Shown: positions 1 through 22,173 of the stretch, piece by piece
Layout of the letters: each line of letters opens with the position of its first letter
How positions within the stretch are numbered: the first letter of the stretch is position 1
Assembly (NCBI GenBank): GCA_014905635.1
Contig: JABVCE010000010.1
Location: 930,001 to 994,000 of the forward strand
Direction: 5' to 3'
DNA: 64,000 bases
Source: Scenedesmus sp. PABB004
Lineage: Eukaryota
The notes under the pieces: generated by a model
The model's database searches: none
Seen by the model: the letters and a program-made list of their open reading frames with translations, nothing else
Told to the model about the DNA's origin: nothing
Program-made: the position numbers and the translations under genes

Positions 1-1171
1 TCGCGCCGTTCTGCCTGGCCAGCGGCGCGCAGCTCAACCTGGCCAAGTGCAAGGGCATGCTGCTGGGCGACCACCCGGCGCTGCAGCTGCAGCCGGATGG
101 CAGCGGGCAGCTGGTCGAGTGCAGCACGGGCGTGTGCTTCCCGGACACAGAGCAGGCGCCGATCAGGCACCTGGGCGTGCTGCTCTCTGCCACCGGCGTC
201 GAGCGGCACGCGGCGCAGCTTTACCGCGAGCGGCTGCGCACCATCACCTGCCGCATCGCGCACTGGTCGCGGTACGCGCTCACGCGCCCGGGCCGCCGGC
301 ACGTTGCGCGCCAGGTGCTCGCGGCCTGCGTGGGCTGGCACGCGCAGTTTGTGCCGGTGCCGGCCGACCTCCTGCGCCTCATCCAGCGGCGCGTCACCGC
401 CTACATCGTCGGCAACTGGTGCATCCGCGAGAGCGACAACCGCATTATCAGGCAGGTTCCGCGGGCGGCCATCGCGTGCCTGCCCGCGAGCATGGGCGGC
501 GAGGCGCAGGTCGACGTCGCGGCCTTCACCACGGCAATGCTGGCCAAGACGGCCGCCAGGCTGCTGCACCCGGTGGGGGCGGCCTGGAAGCCACCCGCGG
601 CGGCGCGCTTCGCGCGCGCGCTGCCTGGCCGGGGCACCGCCGCCCTCGTGCAGGGCACCGCGCTGGAGCTGCGGGCGCAGCTGCCGTGGCGGTGGGGCGC
701 GATCGCCTGCGCGTTTGCGGCTCTCGGCGTGCACCGGGTGATCCCCCACGGCAGCATGACCGTGGAGCAGATCAGGGTGGAGGCCCTGGTGGGCAACTGC
801 AGCGTCGGCGCGGCCCTGGGCGGCGCGCGCATCGCGTCGCTCGAGGACCTGCCCGCGGAGCTGCGCAGCGACAGCCTCGGGCAGGCGGCGCCGCGCCTGC
901 CGTGGCGGCCGGCCGCCGACGGCGTCGTCATGCCGGGTGAGTGGCAGCAGGCGCTCGCGCGCAGCGGGCCGAGCGCGCCGGGTTGGCAGGCGCTGCGGCC
1001 CAGCGCGGCGCCGCCGTCGCCGGGCGGCGGCGTGGTGCAGCAGCCCCAGCAGCCGCTGGCGGCGCTGCCGGTGGAGCAGCCGCCGCAGCCGCCGCCGCCG
1101 CCGCCCGCCGTGCGGTGGGTACGGCGGTGGGCGCTGGGCGCGGCAGCGGCGAGCTTCTTCGAGGTGGGGCC
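1..1171 (+). mobile_element. L1-clade LINE ORF2 fragment (region downstream of the RT core), copy A; cut by the window edge and interrupted at 1171
   Basis: Near-identical to the reverse complement of 16821-17994, which is in frame with the RT domain. It breaks at ...GTGGGGCC followed by poly(T). Confidence 0.9.
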
Positions 1172-3117
1172 TTTTTTTTTTTTTTTTTTTTTGTTACAAT
1201 GGGTGACCAAACAAGGACCGAGGCCCAGGGGCAGCCCACTGAAAAAAACTCCAACGGGAAGAGCGCAGCAACCCCTCGTGAAAAACCGCGCCCCGGCGCC
1301 CCCCGAGAGGGGGCACACACATCACCCAACGGCACAGCCAGAGGCCAACGCCCAACGGGCGCCCAAGGAGACCAGGTGATGCCCCGCAATCAAAGGGGCA
1401 GCAGCAGATCAGGCCGCACACCCCCCTTCCGGTGCGGCGAGCCGCACCGGGCATCGGCGCAGCGAGGTGCACCGGCTCCAAGCCTCCGCGCAGAGACCAC
1501 GCGCAAACGCCATCCACGCTGGCGGCGGCAGGGGCCGGCCTCAGCGGCATCAGCCCCCGCGCCTCGCGACGACACACGCACACACCAGGGGGCAGCAGTT
1601 GGCTTTGCTGCAAAAACCCCTGAGAAAGCCGCGCACCGATGAGAAAGCCGCCCCACCGGGGCGGCTTTCTCAGCTCCATCGCCGCCGGCCCGATCCTTGT
1701 CGCCGCGTCGCCGGCACCGCCGCCGGGCAGGTCCTGCGGCTGCCGCTGCTGCTGCCGCTGCTGACCCTGCTCCATCGCCGCGGGGCGGCCCCTGGCCGCC
1801 TCGCCCGCGGCCGCCCGCGCCGCGCCGCCGGCTCGCGCGCCGCCAGCGCGCGCCGCACCTGCGCCCGGCACGCCCTGCGCGGGCGGCGGCGCCACGGGGG
1901 GCGCGGGCGCGCGGGCCTGCGCACGCTGCGGCGCAGCCTCGGCCCCCTCCGCGTCCGCCTCCAGCCGCGCCAGCGCCCGCTCGTAGGTCTGCTCGCTCGC
2001 ACGCCAGCCGCGCCACTCGCCGGCCGCGCGGCCGGCGACGTAGACGCGCACGCGCCGGCCGTCGGACACAAAGTCGTCTGGCAGGCGGCTGAGCATGGGC
2101 TCGCCCGGCGGCGTCCGCACGTACGCGACGAGCGTGTCCGCGCAGGGCAGCGCCGCCGGCGCGTCGCCGAACGCGCTGCTGCAGCCCCAGTGCTCGGACA
2201 CCGCGAGGTCAGGGCCGTAACCCGCGGCGACCAGCAGGGCGGCCATGACGCCCTGGCCGCGCTCCCACAGGTCCTCCGGCAGCCCCTGCACCAGCACCTT
2301 GACGGTGCCGGCCGGCGCGGCCGTCCTGCCCCATGCCGCCGGCACCGCGCAGCCGCCGAGCTGCAGCACGCCCGCGGCGGCGACCGCAGCCGCCGCCGCG
2401 CGCGACTGCTCGTCCGGCTTGACCGCGATCGCGACGGTGGCCCCGGGGGTGCGCTGCCCGTCGCGGTCGCACGTGGTGTAGCCTGCCGCCCAGGGGAGCG
2501 GCTGCCCGCCCTGCACCAGCAGCTGCCCGAGCTGCGCGACGCCGCGCACGCCCGCCTGGAAGTGCGCGGCGCGGCTCGCCTCCCGCTGGCGCGTCGTGCG
2601 GCCGGAAGGCTGCACGGCCTGCCCCAGCGAGAGCACGACCGCGCGCCGGTCGCCGCCCGGCCCGAGAGCCGGCGCCATGGGGATGGGCGCCCGCTGCGGC
2701 CGGTCCCGCAGCAGCCGGGCCGGGGGCAGGAGCCAGACGGGGCCCGAGGGGCCCGCAACGGCCCCTCCGGGCCGGCCGACAGGGCCCCCGCGCCCCACGG
2801 GCCAGCGCGGGCCGCCCGCTGCTGCCCGGTCGCCCGGGGGGCGCGCCAAAGGCCGGGCTGCGCCGGCCGGCGGGCCCCCGCGCCCAGAAAGCCCGCCCCG
2901 CGGCCAAACTGGGCCGCGGGCAGGCCCGCGGGCGCCTGCACGCTGCGGCCAGCAGCCTGCCGCATCGATGCTTCCCGTCCAAGTCGGCCAGGCCCCGCCC
3001 TGCACCCCCGCACCAGCAACAAGCTCCCCAGAGGCTCCCGAACCGCTCCGGCCAGCCCTGCGCGGCCTGCCGCGACCGAGCGCGCGCTGCCGCTGCTGCT
3101 GCCGCCCGGGGCAGTGA

Positions 3118-3148
<31 letters not shown>

Positions 3149-3158
3149 GAGCGGGGGT
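1172..3158 (-). mobile_element. LINE copy B: 3' UTR plus poly(A) (1172-1657) joined to a probable 5' UTR/ORF1 segment (1672-3158)
   Basis: T21 tract then GTTACAATGGGTGACC, the shared LINE 3' end. The upstream part is an open minus-strand frame (TVKVLVQGLPEDLW...TLVAYVRTPPGEPMLSRLPDDF). The ORF1 assignment is inferred from position. Confidence 0.7.
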
Positions 3159-3212
3159 GTCATCTCCGAGCTCTTGACCGTGGAGGCGCAAACCCCGGCC
3201 AACACCGAGAAG

Positions 3213-4112
3213 CAGCCCCGCCGCCCCTGCGCAGCGGAGGTGCGCGGCTGCAAGGTGCTGCCCGGCCACGGGCTGCGCCGCCGAGCGCCGCCGCCGGCGG
3301 CCGCGCCGCGCCGCGGGCCGCGCGCCGCCCGCGCGCGCGCCGCTCGGCGGCGCCGCGGCGCAGCGCTGCCGGGCGCCGTTCCCCTGCCCCGCCGCCCCTG
3401 CGCAGCGGAGGTGCGCGGCTGCAAGGTGCTGCCCGGCCACGGGCTGCGCCGCCGAGCGCCGCCGCCGGCGGCCGCGCCGCGCCGCGGGCCGCGCGCCGCC
3501 CGCGCGCGCGCCGCTCGGCGGCGCCGCGGCGCAGCGCTGCCGGGCGCCGTTCCCCTGCCCCGCCGCCCCTGCGCAGCGGAGGTGCGCGGCTCCAAGGTGC
3601 TGCCCGGCCACGGGCTGCGCCGCCGAGCGCCGCCGCCGGCGGCCGCGCCGCGCCGCGGGCCGCGCGCCGCCCGCGCGCGCGCCGCTCGGCGGCGCCGCGG
3701 CGCAGCGCTGCCGGGCGCCGTTCCCCCTGCCCGCCGCCCCTGCGCAGCGGAGGTGCGCGGCTGCAAGGTGCTGCCCGGCCACGGGCTGCGCCGCCGAGCG
3801 CCGCCGCCGGCGGCCGCGCCGCGCTGCGGGCCGCGCGCCGCCCGCGCGCGCGCCGCTCGGCGGCGCCGCGGCGCAGCGCTGCCGGGCGCCGTTCCCCCTG
3901 CCCCGCCGCCCCTGCGCAGCGGAGGTGAGCGGCTCCAAGGTGCTGCCCGGCCACGGGCTGCGCCGCCGAGCGCCGCCGCCGGCGGCCGCGCCGCGCCGCG
4001 GGCCGCGCGCCGCCCGCGCGCGCGCCGCTCGGCGGCGCCGCGGCGCAGCGCTGCCGGGCGCCGTTCCCCCTGCCCCGCCGCCCCTGCGCAGCGGAGGTGC
4101 GCGGCTGCAAGG
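3213..4112. repeat. 171-172-bp GC-rich tandem satellite, block 1 (~5.2 monomers)
   Basis: GCAGCGGAGG recurs at 3231, 3402, 3573, 3744, 3916 and 4088. Monomers are nearly identical. Confidence 0.97.
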
Positions 4113-4115
4113 CTG

Positions 4116-4200
4116 TTTTTTTTTTTTTTTTTTTTTTTGTTACTATGGGTGACCAGACAAGGACCGAGGCCCAGGGGCAGCCCACTGAAAAAAGCTCCAA
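4116..4200 (-). mobile_element. LINE 3'-end stub with poly(A), copy C
   Basis: Poly(T) 4116-4138 followed by 62 bp of the LINE 3' terminus. Confidence 0.9.
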
Positions 4201-4554
4201 TTATCAGGCAGGTTCCGCGGGCGGCCATCGCGTGCCTGCCCGCGAGCATGGGCGGCGAGGCGCAGGCCAGCGCCATCGCGCGGCGGGAGGCGGGCCAGAA
4301 GCGCAGCTGGGCGGAGCGGCAGCGAGCCGAGACGCCAGACCCGGAGCCTGGGCTGCCGGCGTGGCAGAAAGTCTCGCCCCCGCGGCGCCACGTCATGGAG
4401 CGCGTCGGGCCGGCGGCGGCCGCTGCCGCCGCGGCGCGGCGCGAGGAGCATGAGCAGCGGCGGGAGCAGCAGCTGGAGCAGCGCAGGACCCTGGTTCAGG
4501 AGCCGGCGGCCAACGACCTCGTCGACCCGCTCACTGGTGCGACTGCGACGCCGC

Positions 4555-5181
4555 CACCAGCGCGCGGCGCCGGAGCTGGCGGAGCTGGCGTGCCCGCACC
4601 CGCTCTGCCGCGCGCAGCAGCAGCCGCCGCTGGAGACGCTCGGCCACGTCCTCGGCGGATGCCCCGTGGCGGCGGCGGTGCTGCAGTGGTTTGCTCACCT
4701 CTGGGCGCGGCTGCAGCCGGGCTTCCCGCGCGCGCCGCCCCCGCCCAGGGTGATGCTGGCGGACGACTTTGCCAGGTCGGGCGTCGCGCCGGAGCTGCAG
4801 CAGCTCTGGACGCACCTCCGCCTGCTGCTGCTGCGCGCCCTGCTCGCTGCGCGCGCGCGGCACGGCGGCGGCCAGCCCGGGCACGCGCCTGTGGCGGCGA
4901 TTCGCATCTTTGTGTACTCGGTGCGCGACGCAGTCGTGCTGGACTGGCGCAAGGCAGCGATGGACGTGCGCGCGCTGGCGGGCGTGCCGCGCTCCTGGCT
5001 GTCGGGCTCCGGCAAGGAGCTCACTCGGGCAGATTTCGAACGCCGGTGGTGCCACCGAGGGGTCATCGCGCGCACGGGCCAGCACGGGGGCCGCTTCACA
5101 ATGGAGTTCCGGCTCACCGCAGCGGGCGTGCCGGCGCTGCCGGCGGCGCCGGCGCTGGCCCCGCCGGCGGCGCAGGACCCC

Positions 5182-5212
<31 letters not shown>

Positions 5213-5752
5213 AGCGCGGCGGCTAGCTGCAGGGGCCGGGGGGTCCGCGGCCGGGCTTGCTGCGACCCCGGCTGGCTGCGTGTCGCGCCTCTTCTGCAAC
5301 GTGCAAGGTTGGGCGGTGTCCGCCCGTGCCGCGGGGCTGGTGTCTGCGTGTCGGTCGTCGCGCGGCGCGGGGGCTGATGCCACTGAGGCCGGCCCCTGCC
5401 GCCGCCGGCGTGGATGGCGTTTGCGCGTGATCTCTGCGCGGAGGCTTGGAGCCGGTGCACCTCGCTGCACCGATGCCCGGTGCGGCTCGCCGCACCGGAA
5501 GGGGGGTGTGCGGCCTGATCTGCTGCTGCCCCTTTGATTGCGGGGCATCACCTGGTCTCCTTGGGCGCCCGTTGGGCGTTGGCCGCTGGCTGTGCCGTTG
5601 GGTGATGTGTGTGCCCCCTCTCGGGGGGCGCCGGAGCGCGGTTTTTCACGAGGGGTTGCTGAGCTCTTCCCGTTGGAGCTTTTTTCAATGGGCTGCCCAT
5701 GGGCCTCGGTCCTTGTCTGGTCACCCATTGTAAAAAAAAAAAAAAAAAAAAA
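4555..5752 (+). mobile_element. 5'-truncated LINE copy D nested in copy E
   Basis: ORF2 end (stop 5226), 3' UTR, TGT followed by poly(A). 13-bp TSD ACTGCGACGCCGC at 4542-4554 and 5753-5765. Confidence 0.92.
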
Positions 5753-6096
5753 ACTGCGACGCCGCGCGCCGGCGAGCGCGCGGAGCCGCCCGCCTGGGCC
5801 GCTTGCTACGCGCGCGCGCAGCAGGCGCGCATGCCGCGCGCCCTGCGACACTTTGGCTGGAGCCTGCTGCACGGCGGGGTGCGCGTCAGCGGCGACAGGG
5901 TCTTCTCTTACCAGCGCGCGGCGCCGGAGCTGGCGGAGCTGGCGTGCCCGCACCCGCTCTGCCGCGCGCAGCAGCAGCCGCCGCTGGAGACGCTCGGCCA
6001 CGTCCTCGGCGGATGCCCCGTGGCGGCGGCGGTGCTGCAGTGGTTTGCTCACCTCTGGGCGCGGCTGCAGCCGGGCTTCCCGCGCGCGCCGCCCCC

Positions 6097-6187
6097 TGGG
6101 CTGCCCCTGGGCCTCGGTCAATGGGCTGCCCCTGGGCCTCGGTCCTTGTCTGGTCACCCATTGTAACCAAAAAAAAAAAAAAAAAAA
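6097..6187 (+). mobile_element. LINE 3' stub with an internal short duplication and poly(A)
   Basis: TGGGCTGCCCCTGGGCCTCGGTC occurs twice, then ...ATTGTAACC(A)n. About 130 bp of the host ORF2 is missing at the site. Confidence 0.85.
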
Positions 6188-6494
6188 GCCCGGGCACGCG
6201 CCTGTGGCGGCGATTCGCATCTTTGTGTACTCGGTGCGCGACGCAGTCGTGCTGGACTGGCGCAAGGCAGCGATGGACGTGCGCGCGCTGGCGGGCGTGC
6301 CGCGCTCCTGGCTGTCGGGCTCCGGCAAGGAGCTCACTCGGGCAGATTTCGAACGCCGGTGGTGCCACCGAGGGGTCATCGCGCGCACGGGCCAGCACGG
6401 GGGCCGCTTCACAATGGAGTTCCGGCTCACCGCAGCGGGCGTGCCGGCGCTGCCGGCGGCGCCGGCGCTGGCCCCGCCGGCGGCGCAGGACCCC

Positions 6495-6525
<31 letters not shown>

Positions 6526-6817
6526 AGCGCGGCGGCTAGCTGCAGGGGCCGGGGGCTGCACGCGCTCCGTGCGCGGCGGCTTGGCGTGCTGCCTGCCCGG
6601 TGGGGCGGCTTTCTCATCGGTGCGCGGCTTTCTCAGGGGGTTTTGCAGCAAAGCCAACTGTTGCCCCCTGGTGTGTGCGTGTGTCGTCGCGCGGCGCGGG
6701 GGCTGATGCCGCTGAGGCCGGCCCCTGCCGCCGCCAGCGTGGATGGCGGTTGCGCGTGATCTCTGCGCGGAGGCTTGGGGCCGGTGCACCTCGCTGCACC
6801 GATGCCCGGTGCGGCTC

Positions 6818-7171
6818 TCTTGGTCGGAGTAGGCGCGGATGTTGCCGGCTAGAGGAGCCAGTCGACAACGGCGGAGAGCAGCGGTTGGCCAACGAGAGAG
6901 CACGGAGACACAAGTGAAGGAGCAAAGGTTACATGTGCGTGGTGAAGAGACTCCTTAGGCAAACGGGGCGGGCGCACGGAGCTATATAGCCGAAACGGTA
7001 TCGGTAATCGCAGCTTCTCGGCGGCTGCCGGTAGCTGCGCCGTAAGCAGCTTCCACCGCGGTTAGCACCTTCCACAAGAGCCCAACTAAGGCCCAATGTT
7101 CCGAGTAGCTTCCTTTAGGCTCCATGCACGCAATGGGGTGAGTGTGCGGCCGAAAACACGCACTCTCATCA
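6818..7171 (-). repeat. Copia 3' LTR
   Basis: Direct repeat of 12266-12619. Contains TATATA (6983-6988) and a minus-strand TGTAA (6929-6933). Confidence 0.97.
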
Positions 7172-7191
7172 CTCCCACGCGGACGCAACAC

Positions 7192-10100
7192 TCACACCAT
7201 GCCCATGCCGGTGCGGCACGCCACAAACTTGGACAGCGCCAGCGGCTTGGTGAGCGCGTCGGCGATGTTGTCGGCCGTGGGCACGTAGTGGAACGTGACC
7301 TCGCCGCGGGCCACGCGCTCGCGCGCAAAGTGGTGCGCGACGTCAATGTGCTTCGAGCGCTGCGAGGACACGGGGTTGCGCAGCAGCTTGATCGCACCCT
7401 GGTTGTCGGAGAGGATGTCGATGGCGCCGATGTTGAACTTGAGGTCGCTCATGAGCTTGCGCAGCCAGAGCGCCTCCTTGACCGCAGCGGAGGCGGCCAT
7501 GTACTCGGCCTCGGTGGTGGAGGCCGCGACGGTCTGCTGCTTCTTGCTGGACCAGGTGATCGCGCCGCCGTTGAGGGTGAAGACGTAGCCGGTGGTCGAG
7601 CGGCGCGTGTCGAGGTCGGCCGCGTAGTCCGAGTCACACATGCCGTTGAGGTCCAGGTTGCCCTTGATGCCGCCGTAGATGATGCCAATGTTGGTGGTGC
7701 CGGCCAGGTAGCGGAGCACGCCCTTGGCCACGCCCCAGTGCACGGTCGTGGGGCAGGACATGAAGCGTGTCAACGCGCTCACCGCAAAGGCGATGTCGGG
7801 GCGCACCGTGATGGAGAGGTAGAGGAGCGCTCCCACGAGCGACGTGTAGGGGTAGGCCGCGGTGTCGAGCGGGTCGCCGTTGTCCTTGGTGAGCTTGGTG
7901 CCGAGGCTCACGGGGATGTCGCGGGGCGCGCAGTCGGCGAGCCCGTACTTGGAGACGAGCTTGGTCACCATCTTCGCGTTGGTGATCTTGATGGTCTTGT
8001 TGATGCGGTCGCGCGTGATGTGCATGCCGAGGTACTGGCTCACCTCGCCGAGGTCGCGGGTCTTGAAGGCGGCAAAGAGCTCCGCCTTGACCGACTCGGC
8101 GAGCGCGCGGTTGCGCGCAATGATGAGGATGTCGTCGACGTAGATGAGGATGTACGAGCCGGAGGTGCCGACGTAGAGCGATGCGTCGGCCTTGGACGGC
8201 GCGAAGCCCATCTTGGTGAGCTCCTCGTGCAGGCGCGAGTGCCACGCGCGCGGGGCCTGCTTGAGGCCGTAGAGCGCCTTGATCAGGCGGCACGCGCGGC
8301 CGGAGCCGTCGTCGTAGCCCTCGGGCTGGCTGATCCACACCTCCTCCTCGAGGTTGCCTTGGAGGAAGGCGTTCTTAATGTCGATCTGGATGATCTCGTA
8401 GTCGTGCGCAGCGGCGAGCGCGAGCACCGCGCGCAGCGTGGCGTACTTGCCGACGGGGGCGAATACCTCGTCGTAGTCGATGCCCTCGATCTGGTGGAAG
8501 CCCTTGGCGACGATGCGGCCCTTGTAGCGCTCGATGTTGCCGGCGAGGTCGGTCTTGGTCGTTAGGACCCACTTGGTCGGGATGATCTTGACGCCGGCGG
8601 GCGGCACGTCGAGCTCCCACGTGTTGTTGGCCACGTGGGCGGCGATCTCCTCGTTCATGGCGCCGTCCCACTTGGACGCGTCGAGCCGGCCGAGCGCCTC
8701 GGTGCGCGTGGCCGGGTCGGGCAAGATCTGCCCCGCGTAGTGCGCGGCGGCGGCGGCGTTCCACCACTCACCGGGCTTGCGCGACACGCGCCCCGAGCGC
8801 GTGATGGTGCCGCCGGTGGTGGAGTCGGTGCCGCCGGCGGTCGGCGCCGGCATGTTGTCGTTGCTCTCGGGCGCCGGGCTCGGCGCGGGCGGCGGCGAGC
8901 CGCCCGGGCTCGAGGGCGGGGAGCCGCCGGGGCTCGCGGGCGGGGAGCCGCCCGGGGTGCCCGGCGGGGAGCCGCTCGGCGGCGCGCCGTCGTGCGCGCC
9001 GGAGTCGGGCTCGTCCTCAAAGGCGTCGTCCGCCGGGAACTTCTCGGCGGCGTAGCGGGTGATGTCGGGGTCGATGAGCGTCGGGGACTTGTAGTTGGCG
9101 AAGCTCTTGGAGAGCACCTTGCTCTCGTCGAAGACGACGTTGCGGCTCGACTTGATGTTGCCGTCGGGCATGAGGATGCGGTAGCCCTTGCCAAAGGCCG
9201 GGTAGCCCACCATGATGCCCTTCTCGGCGTGCGGCTCGAGCTTGGTCCTCTTCTCCTTGGGCACGTGGGCGTAGGCCGTGGCGCCAAAGACGCGGAGCGT
9301 TGACACGTCGGGCTTGCGGCCGAAGAAGGCCTCGAACGGCGTCTTGGGCTTGCCGCTCACGGGAGAGAGGTTGCGGAGGTGGTTGGCCGTCATGATCGCC
9401 TCACCCCACGCCGCGGGCGGGAGCTCGGCGGCGTAGATCATGGGGAGCACCTTGTTGAGGAGCGTGCGGTTGAGCCGCTCGGCGGTGCCGTTTTGCTCGG
9501 GCGTGTAGGGCATGGTCTTTTGGTGCGCGATGCCCTTGTCCTTGAAGAAGCCGGAGAGGTCGGCGTTGACGTACTCGGAGCCGTTGTCGGTGCGGACGGC
9601 CTTGACATGGGCGTCGGTTTGCTTCTCCATGTAGGTGAGCACCTCCTTGACGGCCGGCGTGACGTCGGCCTTGCTCTTGAGCGTGCGCACGATGGAGTAG
9701 CCCGTCGCGTGGTCGATGAAGGTCGCGGCGTACTTGGCGCCGCCGTAAGAGAGCTCGGTCATGGGGCCGCACACGTCCATGCTCACGAGCGCGAGCGGCG
9801 TGTCGTACACCGTCGCGGACTCACCGAAGGGGAGGCGCGTCGTCTTGCCCATCACGCACGGCTCGCACATGGGGAGCGCCTTGAAGTCGGTGGTCGTGAG
9901 GTCCATGCCGGTCACCATGCCGTGCTTGGCGGCGCGCTCGAGGTTGGCGTAGCCGAGGTGGCCAAAGCGCGCGTGCCACACCTCGGGCGCCTCTTTGGCA
10001 ATGAGAGCCGGACTCGGGGAGCCGCGGAGCGTGTTGCTCACGATGCACGGGATGCCGTTGGGCGCGTCGATGGCGGTGACGACCGTCTCGCCGCCCATGC

Positions 10101-12619: not shown

Positions 12620-12815
12620 GGCTCGCCGCACCGGAAGGGGGGGGTGCGGCCTGATCTGCTGCTGCCCCTTTGATTGCGGGGCATCACCTGGTCTCCTTGG
12701 GCGCCCGTTGGGCGTTGGCCTCTGGCTGTGCCGTTGGGTGATGTGTGGGCCCCCTCTCGGGGGGCGCCGGGGCGCGGTTTTTCACGAGGGGTTGCTGCGC
12801 TCTTCCCGTTGGACC

Positions 12816-14339: not shown

Positions 14340-15254
14340 ATTTTTTTTTTTTTTTGTTACAATGGGTGACCAGACAAGGACCGAGGCCCATGGGCAGCCC
14401 ATTGAAAAAAACTCCAACGGGAAGAGCGCAGCAACCCCTCGTGAAAAAACCGCGGCGCGGCGGCTAGCTGCAGGGGCCGGGGGGGTCCGCGGCCGGGCTT
14501 GCTGCGACCCCGGCTGGCTGCGTGTCGCGCCTCTTTTTTTTTTTTTTTTTTTGTTACAATGGGTGACCAGACAAGGACCGAGGCCCAGGGGCAGCCCACT
14601 GAAAAAAGCTCCAACGGGAAGAGCGCAGCAACCCCTCGTGAAAAACCGCGCCCCGGCGCCCCCCGAGAGGGGGCCCACACATCACCCAACGGCACAGCCA
14701 GAGGCCAACGCCCAACGGGCGCCCAAGGAGACCAGGTGATGCCCCGCAATCAAAGGGGCAGCAGCAGATCAGGCCGCACACCCCCCTTCCGGTGCGGCGA
14801 GCCGCACCGGGCATCGGTGCAGCGAGGTGCACCGGCCCCAAGCCTCCGCGCAGAGATCACGCGCAAACGCCATCCACGCTGGCGGCGGCAGGGGCCGGCC
14901 TCAGCGGCATCAGCCCCCGCGCCGCGCGACGACACACGCACACACCAGGGGGCAACAGTTGGCTTTGCTGCAAAAACCCCTGAGAAAGCCGCGCACCGAT
15001 GAGAACACCGCCCCACCGGGCAGGCAGCACGCCAAGCCGCCGCGCACGGAGCGCGCGCAGCCGCCAAACACGCCGGCGGCGCCAGGGGCCGGCCCCATCG
15101 GCAGCAGCCCCCTCGCCGCGCGACGACCAACACGCAGACACCAGCCCCGCGGCACGGGCGGACACCGCCCAACCTTGCACGCTGCAGAAGAGGCGCGACA
15201 CGCAGCCAGCCGGGGTCGCAGCAGCCCGGCCGCGGACCCCCCCGGCCCCTGCAG

Positions 15255-15268
15255 CTAGCCGCCGCGCT

Positions 15269-15299
<31 letters not shown>

Positions 15300-18200
15300 G
15301 GGGTCCTGCGCCGCCGGCGGGGCCAGCGCCGGCGCCGCCGGCAGCGCCGGCACGCCCGCTGCGGTGAGCCGGAACTCCATTGTGAAGCGGCCCCCGTGCT
15401 GGCCCGTGCGCGCGATGACCCCTCGGTGGCACCACCGGCGTTCGAAATCTGCCCGAGTGAGCTCCTTGCCGGAGCCCGACAGCCAGGAGCGCGGCACGCC
15501 CGCCAGCGCGCGCACGTCCATCGCTGCCTTGCGCCAGTCCAGCACGACTGCGTCGCGCACCGAGTACACAAAGATGCGAATCGCCGCCACAGGCGCGTGC
15601 CCGGGCTGGCCGCCGCCGTGCCGCGCGCGCGCGGCGAGCAGGGCGCGCAGCAGCAGCAGGCGGAGGTGCGTCCAGAGCTGCTGCAGCTCCGGCGCGACGC
15701 CCGACCTGGCAAAGTCGTCCGCCAGCATCACCCTGGGCGGGGGCGGCGCGCGCGGGAAGCCCGGCTGCAGCCGCGCCCAGAGGTGAGCAAACCACTGCAG
15801 CACCGCCGCCGCCACGGGGCAGCCGCCGAGGACGTGGCCGAGCGTCTCCAGCGGCGGCTGCTGCTGCGCGCGGCAAAGCGGGTGCGGGCACGCCAGCTCC
15901 GCCAGCTCCGGCGCCGCGCGCTGGTAAGAGAAGACCCTGTCGCCGCTGACGCGCACCCCGCCGTGCAGCAGGCTCCAGCCAAAGTGTCCTTTTTTTTTTT
16001 TTGTTACAATGGGTGACCAGACAAGGACCGAGGCCAGCCAAAGTGTCGCAGGGCGCGCGGCATGCGCGCCTGCTGCGCGCGCGCGTAGCAGGCGGGCCAG
16101 GCGGGCGGCTCCGCGCGCTCGCCGGCGCGCGGCGGCGCAGTCGCACCAGTGAGCGGGTCGACGAGGTCGTTGGCCGCCGGCTCCTGAACCAGGGTCCTGC
16201 GCTGCTGCAGCTGCTGCTCCCGCCGCTGCTCATGCTCCTCGCGCCGCGCCGCGGCGGCAGCGGCCGCCGCCGGCCCGACGCGCTCCATGACGTGGCGCCG
16301 CGGGGGCGAGACTTTCTGCCACGCCGGCAGCCCAGGCTCCGGGTCTGGCGTCTCGGCTCGCTGCCGCTCCGCCCAGCTGCGCTTCTGGCCCGCCTCCCGC
16401 CGCGCGATGGCGCTGGCCGGGCAGGCCTGGCCGTAGCCGGCGCGCCAGAGGCCCGGCACGCAGCCAACGCCGGGCGTCCAGCCCCCTGCCGGCGTGACCT
16501 CGCGCGCGCAGCGCAGCTGCAGCAGCCGCAGGGTCGCGCCGCGCACCGTAAACTGCATGACCGTGGCCGCGTGCCCAAGCCCCCACACGGAGGGGTCGAC
16601 GCGGACGTCAGGCCAGAAGCCCACGAGGCACCATCGCCGCGCCCTGCTGTGCATCTCCGGCTGCTCCGCCGGCGCCGCTGCCCCGGGCGCTCCGGCCGCC
16701 GCGCGCTGCGCGCCCGCCGCTGGCCGCGGCGCCTGCGCCGCGTCCACCACGCAGCAGTCCTCCCACCCCCCCGCCGCGACTATCTCGGGCGGGGGCTCGG
16801 CGGTGCGGAGCCTGCTGTCAGGCCCCACCTCGAAGAAGCTCGCCGCTGCCGCGCCCAGCGCCCACCGCCGTACCCACCGCACGGCGGGCGGCGGCGGCGG
16901 CGGCTGCGGCGGCTGCTCCACCGGCAGCGCCGCCAGCGGCTGCTGGGGCTGCTGCACCACGCCGCCGCCCGGCGACGGCGGCGCCGCGCTGGGCCGCAGC
17001 GCCTGCCAACCCGGCGCGCTCGGCCCGCTGCGCGCGAGCGCCTGCTGCCACTCACCCGGCATGACGACGCCGTCGGCGGCCGGCCGCCACGGCAGGCGCG
17101 GCGCCGCCTGCCCGAGGCTGTCGCTGCGCAGCTCCGCGGGCAGGTCCTCGAGCGACGCGATGCGCGCGCCGCCCAGGGCCGCGCCGACGCTGCAGTTGCC
17201 CACCAGGGCCTCCACCCTGATCTGCTCCACGGTCATGCTGCCGTGGGGGATCACCCGGTGCACGCCGAGAGCCGCAAACGCGCAGGCGATCGCGCCCCAC
17301 CGCCACGGCAGCTGCGCCCGCAGCTCCAGCGCGGTGCCCTGCACGAGGGCGGCGGTGCCCCGGCCAGGCAGCGCGCGCGCGAAGCGCGCCGCCGCGGGTG
17401 GCTTCCAGGCCGCCCCCACCGGGTGCAGCAGCCTGGCGGCCGTCTTGGCCAGCATTGCCGTGGTGAAGGCCGCGACGTCGACCTGCGCCTCGCCGCCCAT
17501 GCTCGCGGGCAGGCACGCGATGGCCGCCCGCGGAACCTGCCTGATAATGCGGTTGTCGCTCGCGCGGATGCACCAGTTGCCGACGATGTAGGCGGTGGTG
17601 ACGCGCCGCTGGATGAGGCGCAGGAGGTCGGCCGGCACCGGCACAAACTGCGCGTGCCAGCCCACGCAGGCCGCGAGCACCTGGCGCGCAACGTGCCGGC
17701 GGCCCGGGCGCGTGAGCGCGTACCGCGACCAGTGCGCGATGCGGCAGGTGATGGTGCGCAGCCGCTCGCGGTAAAGCTGCGCCGCGTGCCGCTCGACGCC
17801 GGTGGCAGAGAGCAGCACGCCCAGGTGCCTGACCGGCGCCTGCTCTGTGTCCGGGAAGCACACGCCCGTGCTGCACTCGACCAGCTGCCCGCTGCCATCC
17901 GGCTGCAGCTGCAGCGCCGGGTGGTCGCCCAGCAGCATGCCCTTGCACTTGGCCAGGTTGAGCTGCGCGCCGCTGGCCAGGCAGAACGGCGCGACGGCGC
18001 CGTCCAGCAGCCGCTTGGCGCTCTCCACTGACGCTGCGTGCAGGGTGGTGTCGTCTGCGTGCTGGTGGCAGCATGGCGCCGGCCCTGCGCCGCCGGGCAG
18101 CTGCAGGCTGGCAAAGCCGGGCTGCCGCTGCACGCGCCGGCACATGGCCGCCAGCGGCTGCGCCGCCAGCACATACAGCAGCGGGCTGAGCGGGCTGCCC

Positions 18201-18717
18201 TGCGCGCAGCCCGACGCCACGCTGAACTCGCGGCTGACATGGCCGCCGTTGAAGGCGACGCGCGCCCGCGTGCCTGCGAGCAGCAGGCGGACCCAGCGCG
18301 TGGTTGCGTCGGGCAGGCCCATGCGCGCGAGGCACCTGAACAGCCAGCCGCGGTCGAGGCGGTCGTAGGCCTTGGCAAAGTCGAGGAACAGCAGGCAGCC
18401 CGGCGCGCGCGTCTCGCGCGCGTGGTCGATCGCCTCCAGGTGCATGAGCACGTTGTCGGCGATGTCCCGGCCCGGCACAAACGCCGTCTGCGTGCCGTCG
18501 ACGATGGAGCCGAGCGCGGGCGCGAGCCGCTGCACGATGGCCTTGGCTGCGATCTTGGTGTCTGCGTTGAGCAGCGTGATGGGGCGGTAGCTGCTGACCG
18601 CCTCGCGCGGCTGGCCGCCCTTGTGGATCAGCGTGACGAGCCCGAGCCGCTGCGTCGCCGCGAGCTGCGGCGCGCCGGCTGCCTGGTTGAGGTAGTGATA
18701 GTTGAAGGCTTGGACGA
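15255..18717 (-). pseudogene. L1-type ORF2 (RT plus C-terminal CCHC), lacking the endonuclease N-terminus and disrupted by stub J
   Basis: YRPITLLNADTKI, QTAFVPGRDIADN, LDFAKAYDR, QGSPLSPLLY, QHADDTT; C-terminal CPHPLC...ETLGHVLGGC. Confidence 0.92.
15990..16033 (-). mobile_element. 44-bp LINE 3' stub J nested in copy I
   Basis: T13 plus 31 bp of the 3' end. 14-bp TSD CCAGCCAAAGTGTC at 15975-15988 and 16034-16047. Confidence 0.93.
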
Positions 18718-20021
18718 GTGTCGCGCCTCTTCTGCAGCGTGCAAGGTTGGGCGGTGTCCGCCCGTGCCGCGGGGCTGGTGTCTGCGTGTTTGTCGTCGCG
18801 CGGCGAGGGGGCTGCAGCCGAAGGGGCCGGCCCCTGGCGCCGCCGGCGTGTTTGGCGGCTGCACGCGCTCCGTGCGCGGCGGCTTGGCGTGCTGCCTGCC
18901 CGGTGGGGCGGCTTTCTCATCGGTGCGCGGCTTTCTCAGGGGTTTTTGCAGCAAAGCCAACTGCTGCCCCCTGGTGTGTGCGTGTGTCGTCGCGCGGCGC
19001 GGGGGCTGATGCCGCTGAGGCCGGCCCCTGCCGCCGCCAGCGTGGATGGCGTTTGCGCGTGATCTTTGCGCGGAGGCTTGGAGCCGGTGCACCTCGCTGC
19101 ACCGATGCCCGGTGCGGCTCGCCGCACCGGAAGGGGGGTGTGCGGCCTGATCTGCTGCTGCCCCTTTGATTGCGGGGCATCACCTGGTCTCCTTGGGCGC
19201 CCGTTGGGCGTTGGCCTCTGGCTGTGCCGTTGGGTGGTGTGTGTGCCCCCTCTCGGGGGGCGCCGGGGCGCGGTTTTTCACGAGGGGTTGCTGCGCTCTT
19301 CCCGTTGGAGTTTTTTTCAATGGGCTGCCCCTGGGCCTCGGTCCTTGTCTGGTCACTCATTGTAACAAAAAAAAAAAAAAAAAACCCTCGTGAAAAACCG
19401 CGCCCCGGCGCCCCCCGAGAGGGGGCCCACACATCACCCAACGGCACAGCCAGAGGCCAACGCCCAACGGGCGCCCAAGGAGACCAGGTGATGCCCCGCA
19501 ATCAAAGGGGCAGCAGCAGATCAGGCCGCACACCCCCCTTCCGGTGCGGCGAGCCGCACCGGGCATCGGTGCAGCGAGGTGCACCGGCTCCAAGCCTCCG
19601 CGCAAAGATCACGCGCAAACGCCATCCACGCTGGCGGCGGCAGGGGCCGGCCTCAGCGGCATCAGCCCCCGCGCCGCGCGACGACACACGCACACACCAG
19701 GGGGCAGCAGTTGGCTTTGCTGCAAAAACCCCTGAGAAAGCCGCGCACCGATGAGAAAGCCGCCCCACCGGGCAGGCAGCACGCCAAGCCGCCGCGCACG
19801 GAGCGCGTGCAGCCGCCAAACACGCCGGCGGCGCCAGGGGCCGGCCCCATCGGCTGCAGCCCCCTCGCCGCGCGACGACAAACACGCAGACACCAGCCCC
19901 GCGGCACGGGCGGACACCGCCCAACCTTGCACGCTGCAGAAGAGGCGCGACACGCAGCCAGCCGGGGTCGCAGCAGGCCCGGCCGCGGACCCCCCGGCCC
20001 CTGCAGCTAGCCGCCGCGCTG

Positions 20022-20053
<32 letters not shown>

Positions 20054-21542
20054 GGTCCTGCGCCGCCGGCGGGGCCAGCGCCGGCGCCGCCGGCAGCGCC
20101 GGCACGCCCGCTGCGGCGAGCCGGAACTCCATTGTGAAGCGGCCCCCGTGCTGGCCCGTGCGCGCGATGACCCCTCGGTGGCACCACCGGCGTTCGAAAC
20201 CTGCCCGAGTGAGCTCCTTGCCGGAGCCCGACAGCCAGGAGCGCGGCACGCCCGCCAGCGCGCGCACGTCCATCGCTGCCTTGCGCCAGTCCAGCACGAC
20301 TGCGTCGCGCACCGAGTACACAAAGATGCGAATCGCCGCCACAGGCGCGTGCCCGGGCTGGCCGCCGCCGTGCCGCGCGCGCGCGGCGAGCAGGGCGCGC
20401 AGCAGCAGCAGGCGGAGGTGCGTCCAGAGCTGCTGCAGCTCCGGCGCGACGCCCGACCTGGCAAAGTCGTCCGCCAGCATCACCCTGGGCGGGGCGGCGC
20501 GCGCGGGAAGCCCGGCTGCAGCCGCGCCCAGAGGTGAGCAAACCACTGCAGCACCGCCGCCGCCACGGGGCAGCCGCCGAGGACGTGGCCGAGCGTCTCC
20601 AGCGGCGGCTGCTGCTGCGCGCGGCAAAGCGGGTGCGGGCACGCCAGCTCCGCCAGCTCCGGCGCCGCGCGCTGGTAAGAGAAGACCCTGTCGCCGCTGA
20701 CGCGCACCCCGCCGTGCAGCAGGCTCCAGCCAAAGTGTCGCAGGGCGCGCGGCATGCGCGCCTGCTGCGCGCGCGCGTAGCAGGCGGCCCAGGCGGGCGG
20801 CTCCGCGCGCTCGCCGGCGCGCGGCGGCGCAGTCGCACCAGTGAGCGGGTCGACGAGGTCGTTGGCCGCCGGCTCCTGAACCAGGGTCCTGCGCCGCTCC
20901 AGCTGCTGCTCCCGCCGCTGCTCATGCTCCTCGCGCCGCGCCGCGGCGGCAGCGGCCGCCGCCGGCCCGACGCGCTCCATGACGTGGCGCCGCGGGGGCG
21001 AGACTTTCTGCCACGCCGGCAGCCCAGGCTCCGGGTCTGGCGTCTCGGCTCGCTGCCGCACCGCCCAGCTGCGCTTCTGGCCCGCCTCCCGCCGCGCGAT
21101 GGCGCTGGCCGGGCAGGCCTGGCCGTAGCCGGCGCGCCAGAGGCCCGGCACGCAGCCAACGCCGGGCGTCCAGCCCCCTGCCGGCGTGACCTCGCGCGCG
21201 CAGCGCAGCTGCAGCAGCCGCAGGGTCGCGCCGCGCACCGTAAACTGCATGACCGTGGCCGCGTGCCCAATCCCCCACACGGAGGGGTCGACGCGGACGT
21301 CAGGCCAGAAGCCCACGAGGCACCATCGCCGCGCCCTGCTGTGCATCTCCGGCTGCTCCGCCGGCGCCGCTGCCCCGGGCGCTCCGGCCGCCGCGCGCTG
21401 CGCGCCCGCCGCTGGCCGCGGCGCCTGCGCCGCGTCCACCACGCAGCAATCCTCCCACCCCCCCGCCGCGACTATCTCGGGCGGGGGCTCGGCGGTGCGG
21501 AGCCTGCTGTCAGGCCCCACCTCGAAGAAGCTCGCCGCTGCC

Positions 21543-22173
21543 GCGCAGCGCTGCCGGGCGCCGTTCCCCCTGCCCCGCCGCCCCTGCGCAGCGGAGGTGC
21601 GCGGCTGCAAGGTGCTGCCCGGCCACGGGCTGCGCCGCCGAGCGCCGCCGCCGGCGGCCGCGCCGCGCCGCGGGCCGCGCGCCGCCCGCGCGCGCGCCGC
21701 TCGGCGGCGCCGCGGCGCAGCGCTGCCGGGCGCCGTTCCCCCTGCCCCGCCGCCCCTGCGCAGCGGAGGTGCGCGGCTCCAAGGTGCTGCCCGGCCACGG
21801 GCTGCGCCGCCGAGCGCCGCCGCCGGCGGCCGCGCCGCGCCGCGGGCCGCGCGCCGCCCGCGCGCGCGCCGCTCGGCGGCGCCGCGGCGCAGCGCTGCCG
21901 GGCGCCGTTCCCCCTGCCCCGCCGCCCCTGCGCAGCGGAGGTGCGCGGCTCCAAGGTGCTGCCCGGCCACGGGCTGCGCCGCCGAGCGCCGCCGCCGGCG
22001 GCCGCGCCGCGCCGCGGGCCGCGCGCCGCCCGCGCGCGCGCCGCTCGGCGGCGCCGCGGCGCAGCGCTGCCGGGCGCCGTTCCCCCTGCCCCGCCGCCCC
22101 TGCGCAGCGGAGGTGCGCGGCTCCAAGGTGCTGCCCGGCCACGGGCTGCGCCGCCGAGCACCGCCGCCGGCGG
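21543..22173. repeat. 172-bp satellite, block 3 (~3.7 monomers; right edge of the cluster)
   Basis: Same monomer and orientation. Unique sequence starts at ~22174. Confidence 0.97.

Follow-up and report, generated by a model that had tools for sequence, protein, structure and literature searches.

The first 22 kb of the 64-kb stretch of Scenedesmus sp. PABB004 DNA analysed here (the window) raise the question of what kind of chromosomal region consists only of repeats that have inserted into one another, and whether such a region could be part of a centromere.

Composition and boundaries of the island

Positions 1-22174 are made up of a 171/172-bp satellite, one L1-like LINE family, and one intact Copia element, and nothing more (61% LINE, 26% Copia, 12% satellite). 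The island, at least 22 kb long and devoid of genes, belongs to a very GC-rich green alga. No host gene was found in 1-23 kb, where, among the long frames, only those of the Copia and LINE elements gave Pfam matches. The initial annotation had described 22 kb lacking host genes and composed of a single satellite, LINE family, and Copia; the Pfam scan upholds the former claim, and the latter also stands, as the previously unclassified ~1.5 kb (1661-3212) proved to belong to the LINE (its 5' portion, including a piece of ORF1), apart from 54 nt derived from the Copia gag region. The features are as follows (TSD, target site duplication).

1-1171, plus strand: LINE copy a, sense, spanning 2209-3383 nt as counted from the 3' end; 99.6% identity with copy R (1175 nt compared); continues left of the window
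1172-3158, minus strand: LINE copy b, internally deleted; poly(T) at 1172-1192, last 468 nt at 1193-1660
3159-3212, plus strand: Copia gag-region fragment, 54 nt, flanked by LINE 5' sequence and satellite
3213-4115, unstranded: satellite block 1, 171-bp period, ~5.2 units, ending at phase ~62 (...GGCTGCAAGG)
4116-4200, minus strand: LINE copy c, poly(T)23 and last 62 nt, within satellite
4200-5753, plus strand: LINE copy d+e+f, sense, two internal deletions, poly(A)22 at 5732-5753
5754-6816, plus strand: LINE copy G, left part (pieces g and i), sense, containing the tiny copy h
6097-6187: LINE copy h, last 50 nt and A19, with 131 bp of target replaced
6817-12619, minus strand: intact Ty1/Copia LTR retrotransposon, 5,803 bp, within LINE copy G
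12620-12815, plus strand: LINE copy G, right part (piece j), ending ~50 nt short of the 3' end, at the internal T7 run of the LINE
12816-13044, minus strand: LINE copy k, poly(T)19 and last 214 nt; 5' end meets satellite at phase 53 (CTGCAAGGTGCTG)
13045-13522, unstranded: satellite block 2, 172 bp, ~2.8 units
13523-13591, minus strand: LINE copy l, poly(T)19 and last 49 nt, in satellite; 11-bp TSD (CTGCCGGGCGC)
13592-14340, unstranded: satellite block 3, 172 bp, ~4.4 units, ending at phase ~62, as block 1
14341-14450, minus strand: LINE copy C3, 3' end, poly(T)15 and last 106 nt; nest level 1
14451-14533, plus strand: LINE copy S', 5' piece, nest level 2, in C3; TSD of ~18 bp (CCCTCGTGAAAAACCGCG)
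14534-18710, minus strand: LINE copy R, nest level 3, in S'; 4.1 kb, poly(T)19; 12-bp TSD (GTGTCGCGCCTC)
15989-16034, minus strand: LINE copy p, nest level 4, in R; T13 and ~last 32 nt; 13-bp TSD (CAGCCAAAGTGTC)
18711-19384, plus strand: LINE copy S', 3' piece, ending in poly(A)18
19385-21546, minus strand: LINE copy C3, main body, positions 78-2243 from the 3' end; 99.0% identical to R
21547-22174, unstranded: satellite block 4, 172 bp, ~3.7 units; right boundary of the island

The cluster extends past the left edge of the window, which contains one (right) edge only. Residues 1046-1432 of the database gene model P0002 are 100% identical to window positions 3-1163, and the first LINE copy therefore reaches at least ~3.1 kb farther left. 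The right boundary, at 22174, is sharp: satellite block 4 gives way to unique DNA that is gene-dense and encodes a class II aaRS, SNF2, inositol-trisphosphate kinase, an Ig-repeat protein, and CobW. Neither blastn of 1-22400 against the whole 64-kb window nor tblastn searches using the proteins of the LINE and the Copia detected any LINE, Copia, or satellite copy beyond 22174, in agreement with the earlier description of the adjacent 42 kb as free of copies. A relaxed satellite search of these 42 kb returned partial matches only (66-87% identity), which read as low-complexity GC-rich similarity, and no telomere-type repeat was found in the 64 kb. The satellite, with 89% GC, alone stands out in composition, the LINE and the flank both having 75%; the GC content reported for Scenedesmus sp. 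PABB004 is 78.5%. Its genome is described as having 39.8 Mb with 1.31% repeats (PMC12571836), which would leave room for only ~20 islands of this size. The LINE protein is common to Scenedesmus sp. PABB004, with 99% identity.

The LINE family

Mapping of the 4,099-nt reference copy (R) against the window resolved 12 separable insertion events of one LINE family. The chained pieces are 94-100% identical to the reference, except for a stretch in fragment i (88%), which suggests a young element. In all 64 kb, there are 13 A/T runs of at least 7 nt: 10 of them, 13-23 nt long, each adjoin the identical conserved LINE 3' end, and the three 7-nt runs are internal to the LINE. All 13 are located at or before position 19384, with none in 19385-64000. 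An initial count of 10 poly(A) tails and at least 12 copies thus matches the exact figures of 10 tails and 12 separable insertions.

The complete element would consist of two frames, ORF1, which has an RRM-like domain, and ORF2, which encodes an APE endonuclease and a reverse transcriptase (RT), followed by a ~0.9-kb 3' UTR and a poly(A) tail. Copy R is truncated just upstream of the RT domain and encodes the RT (Pfam RVT_1, E=1.4e-28) and the C-terminal part of ORF2. Copy b has a sharp break at ~1662 and carries an N-terminal fragment of ORF1 (P0122) at 2678->1686; the remaining stretch, up to ~3158, is presumed to be the 5' leader. P0122 has 52 homologues and a predicted model with a tandem-RRM-like fold; no Pfam family was found for it. 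In L001 and L002, two related elements, the sequence directly 5' of the APE-RT ORF2 encodes the C-terminal halves of P0122 homologues, and these halves match the N-terminus of P0002. Among solved structures, P0002, a copy from the same genome, is best matched by human L1 ORF2p (2.8e-19 to 1.2e-18), with R2 at 1.8e-7. The relative P0007, whose alignment with P0002 begins within the endonuclease domain, combines Exo_endo_phos and RVT_1 domains and matches human L1 ORF2p at 3.3e-35. The matches of both proteins to L1 ORF2p and the domains of P0007 show the element, as judged from its encoded proteins, to be of the L1 type.

Satellite blocks and the Copia element

Tandem Repeats Finder (TRF) detected arrays at 3215-4112 (period 171, 5.2 copies, 98% matches), 13045-13524 (period 172, 2.8 copies, 98%), 13589-14339 (period 172, 4.4 copies, 99%), and 21536-22174 (period 172, 3.7 copies, 99%). 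After junction trimming, the four blocks, all in direct orientation and amounting to ~16 units in the window, add up to 2,758 bp, or 12.4% of 1-22174, with 89.0% GC. The satellite phase is uninterrupted across LINE copy l, from block 2 to block 3, and blocks 1 and 2 have CTGCAAGG in common on both sides of an 8.9-kb nest. Given this shared orientation, phase continuity, and shared sequence, the satellite predates the LINE insertions. Two satellite-LINE junctions, at 4115 and 14340, have the identical satellite phase, and the segments 3366-4200 and 13589-14417 are 97.3% identical; the two junctions could go back to a single event that unequal exchange duplicated.

The single Copia noted initially is intact. 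Its LTRs (6817-7171 and 12265-12619, 355 bp each) differ by 2 mismatches (99.4% identity), it is flanked by a 5-bp TSD in LINE copy G, and its 1410-aa open frame (7192-11424, minus strand) contains the Pfam domains Retrotran_gag_2, gag_pre-integrs, rve, and RVT_2. With an LTR difference of 2/355, the insertion is probably recent. The fragment at 3159-3212 matches 10741-10794 (Copia residues 211-228) in reverse complement, with 100% identity.

Insertion and nesting of the LINE copies

Clean TSDs were found at four LINE insertions, p (13 bp), R (12 bp), S' (~18 bp), and l (11 bp), and nesting is four deep, with C3 interrupted by S', S' by R, and R by p. Clean TSDs of 11-18 bp combined with nesting identify these as real retrotransposition events, not mere duplications. 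Every copy whose 5' end is readable in the window is 5' truncated, except for copy b, which has kept its 5' part and has an internal deletion. The insertion of copy h was accompanied by a 131-bp target deletion, and copy p cuts short the open frame of R, as seen from the uninterrupted copy at 20711-20760. Clean TSDs are absent from two junctions, those of the C3 5' end with satellite block 4 (at phase 164) and of the b 5' end with block 1, and rearrangement has therefore also shaped the island.

The neighbour at the 10 poly(A) junctions is LINE in seven cases, satellite in three, and unique DNA in none, and every scorable LINE target is a LINE copy or satellite. Insertion points along the LINE lie at ~50, 78-96, 636-648, 1055-1187, 1423-1436, and 2209 nt from its 3' end, and copy k entered at the internal T7 run; no target motif is common to the bases before poly(T) across the 10 junctions. 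The TSDs, four nest levels, and junction map bear out the initial view of a self-nesting LINE accompanied by a nucleosome-length satellite and a Copia. To call it a targeted LINE is justified only loosely, inasmuch as LINE or satellite adjoins each of the 10 poly(A) junctions, and not in the sense of a target motif. We infer that it is this chromatin, not a DNA motif, that either attracts new copies or is the only place where they persist.

Possible origins of the island

The anatomy of the island, the insertion mechanism, the nesting order, and the copy-free state of the neighbouring 42 kb are demonstrated by these data. By analogy with other green algae, we regard the island as the right-hand edge of a Zepp-type island that may represent the repeats of a centromere or pericentromere (probability of about 0.5). 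It would have started as a short array of the 172-bp, 89%-GC satellite adjoining ordinary genes, into which a young L1-like LINE would have inserted repeatedly by target-primed reverse transcription, hitting the satellite and, more often, its own earlier copies. This would have produced copies that are 5' truncated, end in poly(A), have TSDs of 11-18 bp, and are nested up to four levels deep, and the last step would be the landing of a single intact, recent Copia in a LINE copy.

The satellite has several properties that speak against a centromere. In the window it is short, ~16 units (2.8 kb), and it is extremely GC-rich, as opposed to the short regional centromere candidates described for other streamlined algae, which are AT-rich (PMC12636532). 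Moreover, Zepp, ZeppL, and Chlorella centromeres have been reported without a satellite core. A nested L1 cluster need not be centromeric, either, because the earliest Zepp clusters to be discovered lay at the ends of chromosomes (as cited in PMC3446292), and a subtelomeric location is described for two of those in Coccomyxa. The island might be a subtelomeric or other silent block with no kinetochore link, a tolerated satellite or transposable-element patch in which surviving copies have piled up while a compact, gene-dense genome purges LINE insertions elsewhere. We consider this possible, although less probable than a centromeric or pericentromeric region. It would fit the gene-dense flank, the lack of a target motif at the LINE junctions, the chromosomal positions of those Zepp clusters (PMC3446292), the satellites of their own reported for Chlamydomonas subtelomeres (PMC9940879), and the 1.31% repeat content (PMC12571836), at which selection against insertions should be strong; a chromosome end could also lie beyond the left edge of the window, which the cluster passes. 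However, the 64 kb contain no telomere-type repeat, and passive filtering does not readily account for near-identical copies nested four deep within 8 kb when the neighbouring 42 kb, intergenic and intronic sequence included, have no solitary copy. Further, according to the published accounts, nested L1 islands are putative centromeres in every green alga in which such islands have been mapped.

Clustering would be a mere by-product if the LINE endonuclease recognized a motif shared by the satellite and the LINE itself, which we consider very unlikely. The L1/Tx1 group includes site-specific members, and the closest annotated protein is named "transposon TX1 protein" by one source; two satellite junctions and one 5' junction share one satellite position, CTGCAAGG, and copy k entered the LINE at its T7 run. 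Nevertheless, the 10 junctions represent ten different contexts with no common motif before poly(T), the insertion points are scattered over a LINE segment of more than 2 kb, the third insertion into satellite (copy l) has a different phase, TSD length varies from 11 to 18 bp, and the two same-phase junctions may be that single duplicated event (3366-4200 versus 13589-14417, 97.3%). Just as improbable is that the nesting is largely an assembly artefact or reflects segmental duplication or inversion of a few copies, as might be suggested by the junctions lacking TSDs and by the 100% identity of 395-1172 to 16820-17597, 4556-4742 to 5910-6096, and 4874-5173 to 6187-6486. Mis-joins do not yield exact TSDs with the host sequence resuming precisely, as found at four nested LINE insertions and the Copia; poly(A) length and junction bases vary among copies, and the uninterrupted copy at 20711-20760 represents the empty site of insertion p.

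Comparison with known systems

Human LINE-1 has an RRM in its ORF1, nicks T-rich sites, and disperses. The PABB004 element resembles it in combining an APE endonuclease with an RT in ORF2, in its RRM-type ORF1 (the fold coming from a predicted model), and in its poly(A) tail, variable-length TSDs, 5' truncation, and occasional target deletion, but its sites are GC-rich and share no motif, and its copies are confined to one island within the window.

L1 and Copia elements are described in the centromeres of Chlorella (C. sorokiniana and C. pyrenoidosa; PMC11005252), and Copia centromeres have been reported for Chromochloris zofingiensis (PMC8226300), a member of the same order as PABB004. These are regional centromeres built of transposable elements, L1 and/or Copia, and the PABB004 island likewise includes a young Copia, although only a single copy in the window; unlike this island, they are reported to lack tandem satellites.

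The nested clusters of Zepp in Coccomyxa subellipsoidea C-169 measure 1.5-42.3 kb, with exactly one on each chromosome (PMC3446292), and their size range includes the at least 25 kb of the PABB004 island. As described (PMC3446292, PMC8226300), Zepp is a poly(A) LINE with two ORFs and frequent 5' truncation that inserts into its earlier copies, producing nested clusters rich in 3' ends and gene-free islands in a small genome. The differences are that no tandem satellite is described in or near Zepp clusters, whereas the 172-bp satellite serves as a substrate in PABB004; that Zepp raises local GC (61% versus 53%), whereas the PABB004 LINE, at 75%, is similar to its flank (75%); and that the Zepp host belongs to Trebouxiophyceae and PABB004 to Chlorophyceae (Sphaeropleales).

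In Chlamydomonas, ZeppL clusters are putative centromeres (PMC8226300; PMC9940879) and are reported to bind CENH3 (bioRxiv 10.1101/2025.03.28.645958). As described, the ZeppL clusters span 51-320 kb, with ~60% ZeppL, and satellite DNA is not a major component of them. Nonetheless, ZeppL-1_cRei of Chlamydomonas reinhardtii likewise forms highly localised nested L1 clusters with other transposable elements mixed in, some directly flanked by satellites, and is absent outside them, as is the PABB004 LINE within the 42-kb flank. In anatomy and behaviour, the PABB004 island thus appears to match the Zepp and ZeppL clusters as these have been described, and nested L1 islands of this kind are reported to mark centromeres in other green algae.

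Composition of the Repeat Island

The first 22,174 nt of the window form a repeat island that runs off the left edge and consists of a satellite (12.4%), a Copia element (26.2%), and copies of one LINE family (61.4%, including ~0.5 kb of presumed 5' leader). The counts and coordinates of the initial annotation (one satellite, 10 poly(A) tails, at least 12 LINE copies, and one Copia element) proved correct, and its description of the island as made only of these three classes holds, the sole addition being a 54-nt scrap of Copia. Its statement that the adjacent 42 kb has no copy was likewise borne out: with 1-22400 as the blastn query, and with LINE and Copia proteins as tblastn queries, the window yielded no match beyond 22174, i.e., 0 copies in 22175-64000. 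On the left, positions 3-1163 are 100% identical to residues 1046-1432 of P0002, a LINE gene model presumably from the same genome, which implies that the copy at the edge (copy a) extends at least about 3.1 kb beyond the window and gives the island a minimum length of about 25 kb.

The rest of the window, from 22175 on, is ordinary gene space. The GC content of the window, 68-83% in 2-kb bins, is in line with that of the Scenedesmus sp. PABB004 genome, which is described as 39.8 Mb in 77 contigs with 78.5% GC and 1.31% repeats (PMC12571836).

Genes predicted to the right of the island
About 29.2-31.9 kb, minus strand, class II aminoacyl-tRNA synthetase
34.4-35.8 kb, minus strand, SNF2-related protein
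39-41.4 kb, minus strand, inositol-trisphosphate 5/6-kinase
About 45-58 kb, plus strand, very large Ig-repeat protein with exons forming a 2,004-bp tandem repeat
60.6-63.5 kb, minus strand, CobW-type GTPase

From the satellite edge to the first recognizable gene (22175-29190, ~7 kb), there are long open frames with no Pfam match. No tRNA genes, Rfam families, or telomere-type repeats were found in the window. Within the Ig-repeat gene (45451-58500, plus strand), the 2,004-bp unit occurs at about 49.6-57.7 kb in 3-5 copies with 97-100% identity, and the frames over it match bacterial-type Ig domains (Big_9, He_PIG, and Cadherin_5); it looks like the product of recent exon-block duplications in a gene for a very large Ig-repeat surface protein.

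The Copia component is a Ty1/Copia LTR retrotransposon, as seen from its domain order, LTRs, and target site duplication (TSD). On the minus strand, 7192-11424 encode an uninterrupted 1410-aa polyprotein with gag, integrase, and reverse transcriptase domains in one frame (Retrotran_gag_2, residues 83-221; rve, 543-642; RVT_2, 933-1172). Its 355-bp LTRs differ at 2 positions, and a 5-bp target duplication flanks the element.

The satellite, a 171/172-bp unit, is present in four arrays, and its units match one another at 98-99%.

Satellite arrays detected by Tandem Repeats Finder
Array 1, 3215-4112, 5.2 copies
Array 2, 13045-13524, 2.8 copies
Array 3, 13589-14339, 4.4 copies
Array 4, 21536-22174, 3.7 copies

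All four blocks have the same orientation, and the reference unit is 89.5% G+C. The arrays are homogeneous, and the monomer size is within the nucleosome-length range (150-180 bp). Long arrays, as in chromosome-wide markers, were not encountered in the window, where the satellite amounts to ~16 units (2,758 bp) in four blocks. Derivation of the satellite from the LINE or Copia was considered and rejected, as it shares with them only low-complexity matches at 77-79%. No predicted protein reading through the satellite was found at E≤1e-10, a search that is uninformative because low-complexity words may have swamped the candidates. Relaxed satellite matches beyond 22174 are partial (66-87% identity) and are read as compositional.

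The LINE Copies and Their Nesting

Copy R (14553-18710, minus strand), the longest one, served after removal of a 46-nt nested copy as the 4,099-nt LINE reference. Fragments were positioned by their distance from the 3' end of the element and then chained, giving 12 insertion events in 1-22174.

LINE insertions mapped to the reference copy
a, 1-1171, plus strand
b, 1172 to about 3158, minus strand
c, 4116-4200, minus strand
d+e+f, 4200-5753, plus strand
G (g+i+j), 5754-6816 and 12620-12815, plus strand, split by Copia
h, 6097-6187, plus strand
k, 12816-13044, minus strand
l, 13523-13591, minus strand
C3 (m+r), 14341-14450 and 19385-21546, minus strand
S' (n+q), 14451-14533 and 18711-19384, plus strand
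R, 14534-18710, minus strand, reference copy
p, 15989-16034, minus strand

The whole 64 kb contains 13 runs of A or T of at least 7 nt, all at or before 19384. Ten of these are tails of 13-23 nt, each joined to one conserved LINE terminus (...CCTTGTCTGGTCACCCATTGTAAC-An), and the other three are a 7-nt run internal to the LINE. Four insertions have exact TSDs, and around all four the host sequence resumes precisely.

LINE insertions with target site duplications
p, in copy R, TSD of 13 bp; the empty site is found in a sister copy (20711-20760)
R, in copy S', TSD of 12 bp
S', in copy C3, TSD of about 18 bp
l, in the satellite, TSD of 11 bp; satellite phase continuous

At insertion h, the copy took the place of 131 bp of target sequence. 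Several copies are truncated at the 5' end, as read from their mapping to the reference. The poly(A) tails, variable TSDs, and 5' truncation are footprints of target-primed reverse transcription, so the copies arose by independent insertions and not merely by duplication. The LINE has repeatedly entered its own copies: p lies in R, R in S', and S' in C3, a nest of four levels, and the arrays are rich in 3' ends.

The 3' untranslated region (UTR) has peculiarities of its own. An internal A7 run ~50-57 nt from the end behaves as a hot spot: truncation of copies h and l occurred precisely at this point, 49-50 nt from the end (6118-6187 and 13543-13591), and copy k was inserted there (12815-12834). 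In copy c, the interruption lies 62 nt from the LINE end (4139-4200). An internal duplication of ~113 nt with 81-84% identity (14838-14948 versus 15032-15144) is old, being found in every copy long enough to show it.

Classification of the LINE

Domain content and similarity searches identify the element as an L1-type LINE; it has two ORFs, a poly(A) tail, and a 3' UTR of ~0.9 kb. The frame at 16004-18916 (minus strand) encodes a non-LTR reverse transcriptase (RVT_1, E=1.4e-28). Among solved structures in the PDB, human LINE-1 ORF2p is the best match for both P0002 (2.8e-19, versus 1.8e-7 for R2) and P0007, a full-length related LINE protein (3.3e-35, versus 1e-8 for R2), and the latter also matches L1 endonuclease structures. 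P0007 combines Exo_endo_phos (PF03372, E=3.5e-13) with RVT_1. None of the copies in the window includes the endonuclease domain: R, C3, d+e+f, and a (at the edge) reach the reverse transcriptase region and stop short of it. The N-terminal apurinic-type endonuclease was instead found through P0002, which aligns with P0007 at 47% identity over 1026 residues, starting inside the endonuclease.

The family has been active recently. Four LINE proteins presumed to be from the same genome, encoded on contigs of 1,269,045, 4,853,734, 87,414, and 784,350 nt, are 92-99% identical to the window copy and point to other copies in that genome. Among Scenedesmus sp. PABB004 LINE proteins, one is 81% identical (owing to differing gene models) and another 99%. 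Searches elsewhere returned little: exact-match scans with the LINE 3' end gave 0 matches both in JGI metagenome contigs and in prokaryote genome contigs, a search of short proteins for LINE fragments gave only 2 matches, the reverse transcriptase matched only generic RVT_1 clusters in the protein atlas, and only six public runs, all of them metagenomes, contain 0.05-0.13 of the sampled words.

Copy b and a Predicted ORF1 Family

The stretch 1661-3212, most of it in copy b, has no other match within the window except for a piece of Copia gag at 3159-3212. On the minus strand, an ATG-started frame named P0122 (2678 to 1686) immediately precedes the final 468 nt and poly(A) tail of copy b. P0122 belongs to no Pfam family. 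A search of 1.84 billion representatives recovered 52 homologues at E≤1e-3, of which 13 reach E≤1e-10, and in the 20 of the 52 that were scanned, no Pfam family scored above the cutoff. In the 52-sequence comparison, the C-terminal halves of the homologues match the N-terminal region of P0002 collinearly (E from 7e-5 to 0.02), and in L001 and L002, two related element loci on metagenome contigs, these halves are encoded immediately upstream of an APE-RT ORF2 on the same strand. Because of these collinear matches and this position, P0122 is assigned as the predicted N-terminal part of the ORF1 of this lineage, and copy b is best described as an internally deleted element that has retained its 5' part. 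That 1661-3193 might be a host gene or a different transposable element was considered and rejected, as the homologues and the comparison with P0002, L001, and L002 point to a LINE 5' part.

The predicted ORF1 proteins (P0122; relatives P0126-P0176; loci L001:38-850 and L002:38-850), a family without a Pfam model, comprise 52 representatives, typically of 580-680 aa, with a conserved N-terminal domain of ~200 aa, a Q-rich linker, and a C-terminal WLRxxLG...YxSDSDD motif just before ORF2. The structure model of P0122 has a mean pLDDT of only 63 (75-90 in the core). Its Foldseek matches, among those listed (ranks up to 50), all have at least 2 RRM domains, with E of about 1e-3 and a low TM-score; in the model, the N-terminal domain looks like tandem RRMs. 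Protein atlas scores for ORF1 (≤0.83) serve as a lead only.

Two features in and beside copy b deserve mention. The 54-nt piece at 3159-3212, which separates the LINE 5' part from the first satellite unit, is 100% identical to the reverse complement of Copia gag at 10741-10794; being antisense to the adjoining LINE, it is not explained by simple template switching. A perfect 14-nt inverted repeat (GAGAAAGCCGCCCC / GGGGCGGCTTTCTC) contains the junction of the internal deletion (1640-1672) and suggests a fold-back or a template jump at that breakpoint.

Assembly of the Island

The satellite was in place before the LINE. Satellite phase, i.e., the position within the 172-bp unit, runs on across insertion l, and CTGCAAGG (phases 53-62) is common to the end of block 1 and the start of block 2, so that the whole 8.9-kb nest (c, d-f, G with Copia, and k) occupies one satellite position. 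Elsewhere the joins are less regular: at its 5' end, C3 joins block 4 at phase 164, not 63 (101 nt missing modulo the unit), and the 5' end of copy b reaches block 1 via the Copia scrap. The simplest history would begin with a pre-existing array of about 16 units beside genes, which three insertion nests (8.9 kb, 69 bp, and 7.2 kb) would then have enlarged roughly sevenfold.

The satellite-to-poly(T) junctions at 4115 and 14340 fall at one phase, shared also by the junction of a LINE 5' end with the satellite at 13045 (CTGCAAGG, 53-62), and 3366-4200 is 97.3% identical to 13589-14417. The two satellite-to-poly(T) junctions may represent a single event copied by unequal exchange or two insertions at a preferred site. 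The LINE 3' ends at the two junctions differ at several of 62 positions, above most differences between copies, which makes reuse of the site and duplication equally likely.

Of the ten poly(A) junctions, 7 abut the LINE, 3 abut the satellite, and none abuts unique DNA. Insertion points along the LINE lie about 50, 78-96, 636-648, 1055-1187, 1423-1436, and 2209 nt from its 3' end. A target-site motif was sought before the poly(T) and rejected: the ten junction contexts have nothing in common, and the preceding bases are T-rich only at copy k, whose point of entry was the internal T7 run of the LINE. This lack of a common motif, together with the spread of the insertion points, makes a sequence-specific endonuclease unlikely. 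The pattern is compatible either with guidance of new insertions by chromatin or by a tethering factor or with their survival only in the island.

Centromeric Potential and Comparison with Green-Algal Systems

By analogy with other green algae, a centromeric identity for the island is a reasonable reading, to which we assign a probability of roughly one-half. In its favor, repeats are rare in the PABB004 genome (1.31%): at about 0.52 Mb in total, these would leave room for no more than about 20 islands as large as this one. Against it stand the satellite, which is short and very GC-rich, and the subtelomeric precedent for Zepp, the L1 of Coccomyxa. A more specific proposal, in which the island would be a working centromere, with CENH3 on the 89%-GC 172-bp satellite and an L1 homing to that chromatin, is considerably more tentative. 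If the island is not centromeric, it would be an ordinary young nest of transposable elements.

A working centromere of this kind would be the first in green algae to join a satellite core with a self-nesting LINE; those described so far are islands of transposable elements (Zepp, ZeppL, and L1 plus Copia in Chlorella), reported without a satellite core (PMC11005252; PMC3446292; PMC9940879). It would also mean that Sphaeropleales, an order whose only described centromeres are Copia-based, recruited an L1 of its own, separately from the Zepp/ZeppL lineage. A centromeric island would extend the Zepp-type solution to another order and provide a satellite-plus-LINE intermediate bearing on the proposal that centromeric satellites and centromere-seeking retroelements coevolve. 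Our literature search found no account of centromere composition in Scenedesmaceae; the one relevant paper on Scenedesmus names a centromere a single time, in the legend of a figure, and in the text of a 38-genome Scenedesmaceae paper the string "centromer" appears nowhere. With so small a genome and so few repeats (1.3% in PABB004), such islands would be easy to enumerate, and they might provide candidate centromere parts for use in artificial chromosomes of an oleaginous alga.

Among the known systems, Zepp of Coccomyxa subellipsoidea has two ORFs and is described as forming nested, probably centromeric clusters, with strictly one on each chromosome and sizes of 1.5-42.3 kb; that account reports no tandem satellite in or near them and places two clusters subtelomerically (PMC3446292). 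The Zepp-like L1 of Chlamydomonas, ZeppL-1_cRei, is reported to form one localized cluster of 51-320 kb per chromosome, with satellites flanking some clusters and not a major component (PMC8226300; PMC9940879), and CENH3 CUT&Tag is reported to map almost exclusively to ZeppL (bioRxiv 10.1101/2025.03.28.645958). Chlorella centromeres, validated by CENH3 ChIP, are described as L1 plus Copia without satellite arrays (PMC11005252), those of Chromochloris, from the same order as Scenedesmus, are cited as Copia-based (PMC8226300; PMC11005252), and a streamlined trebouxiophyte is reported to have short, AT-rich centromere candidates (PMC12636532). The island described here works in the same way as the Zepp and ZeppL clusters but differs from them in its satellite substrate and its host lineage.
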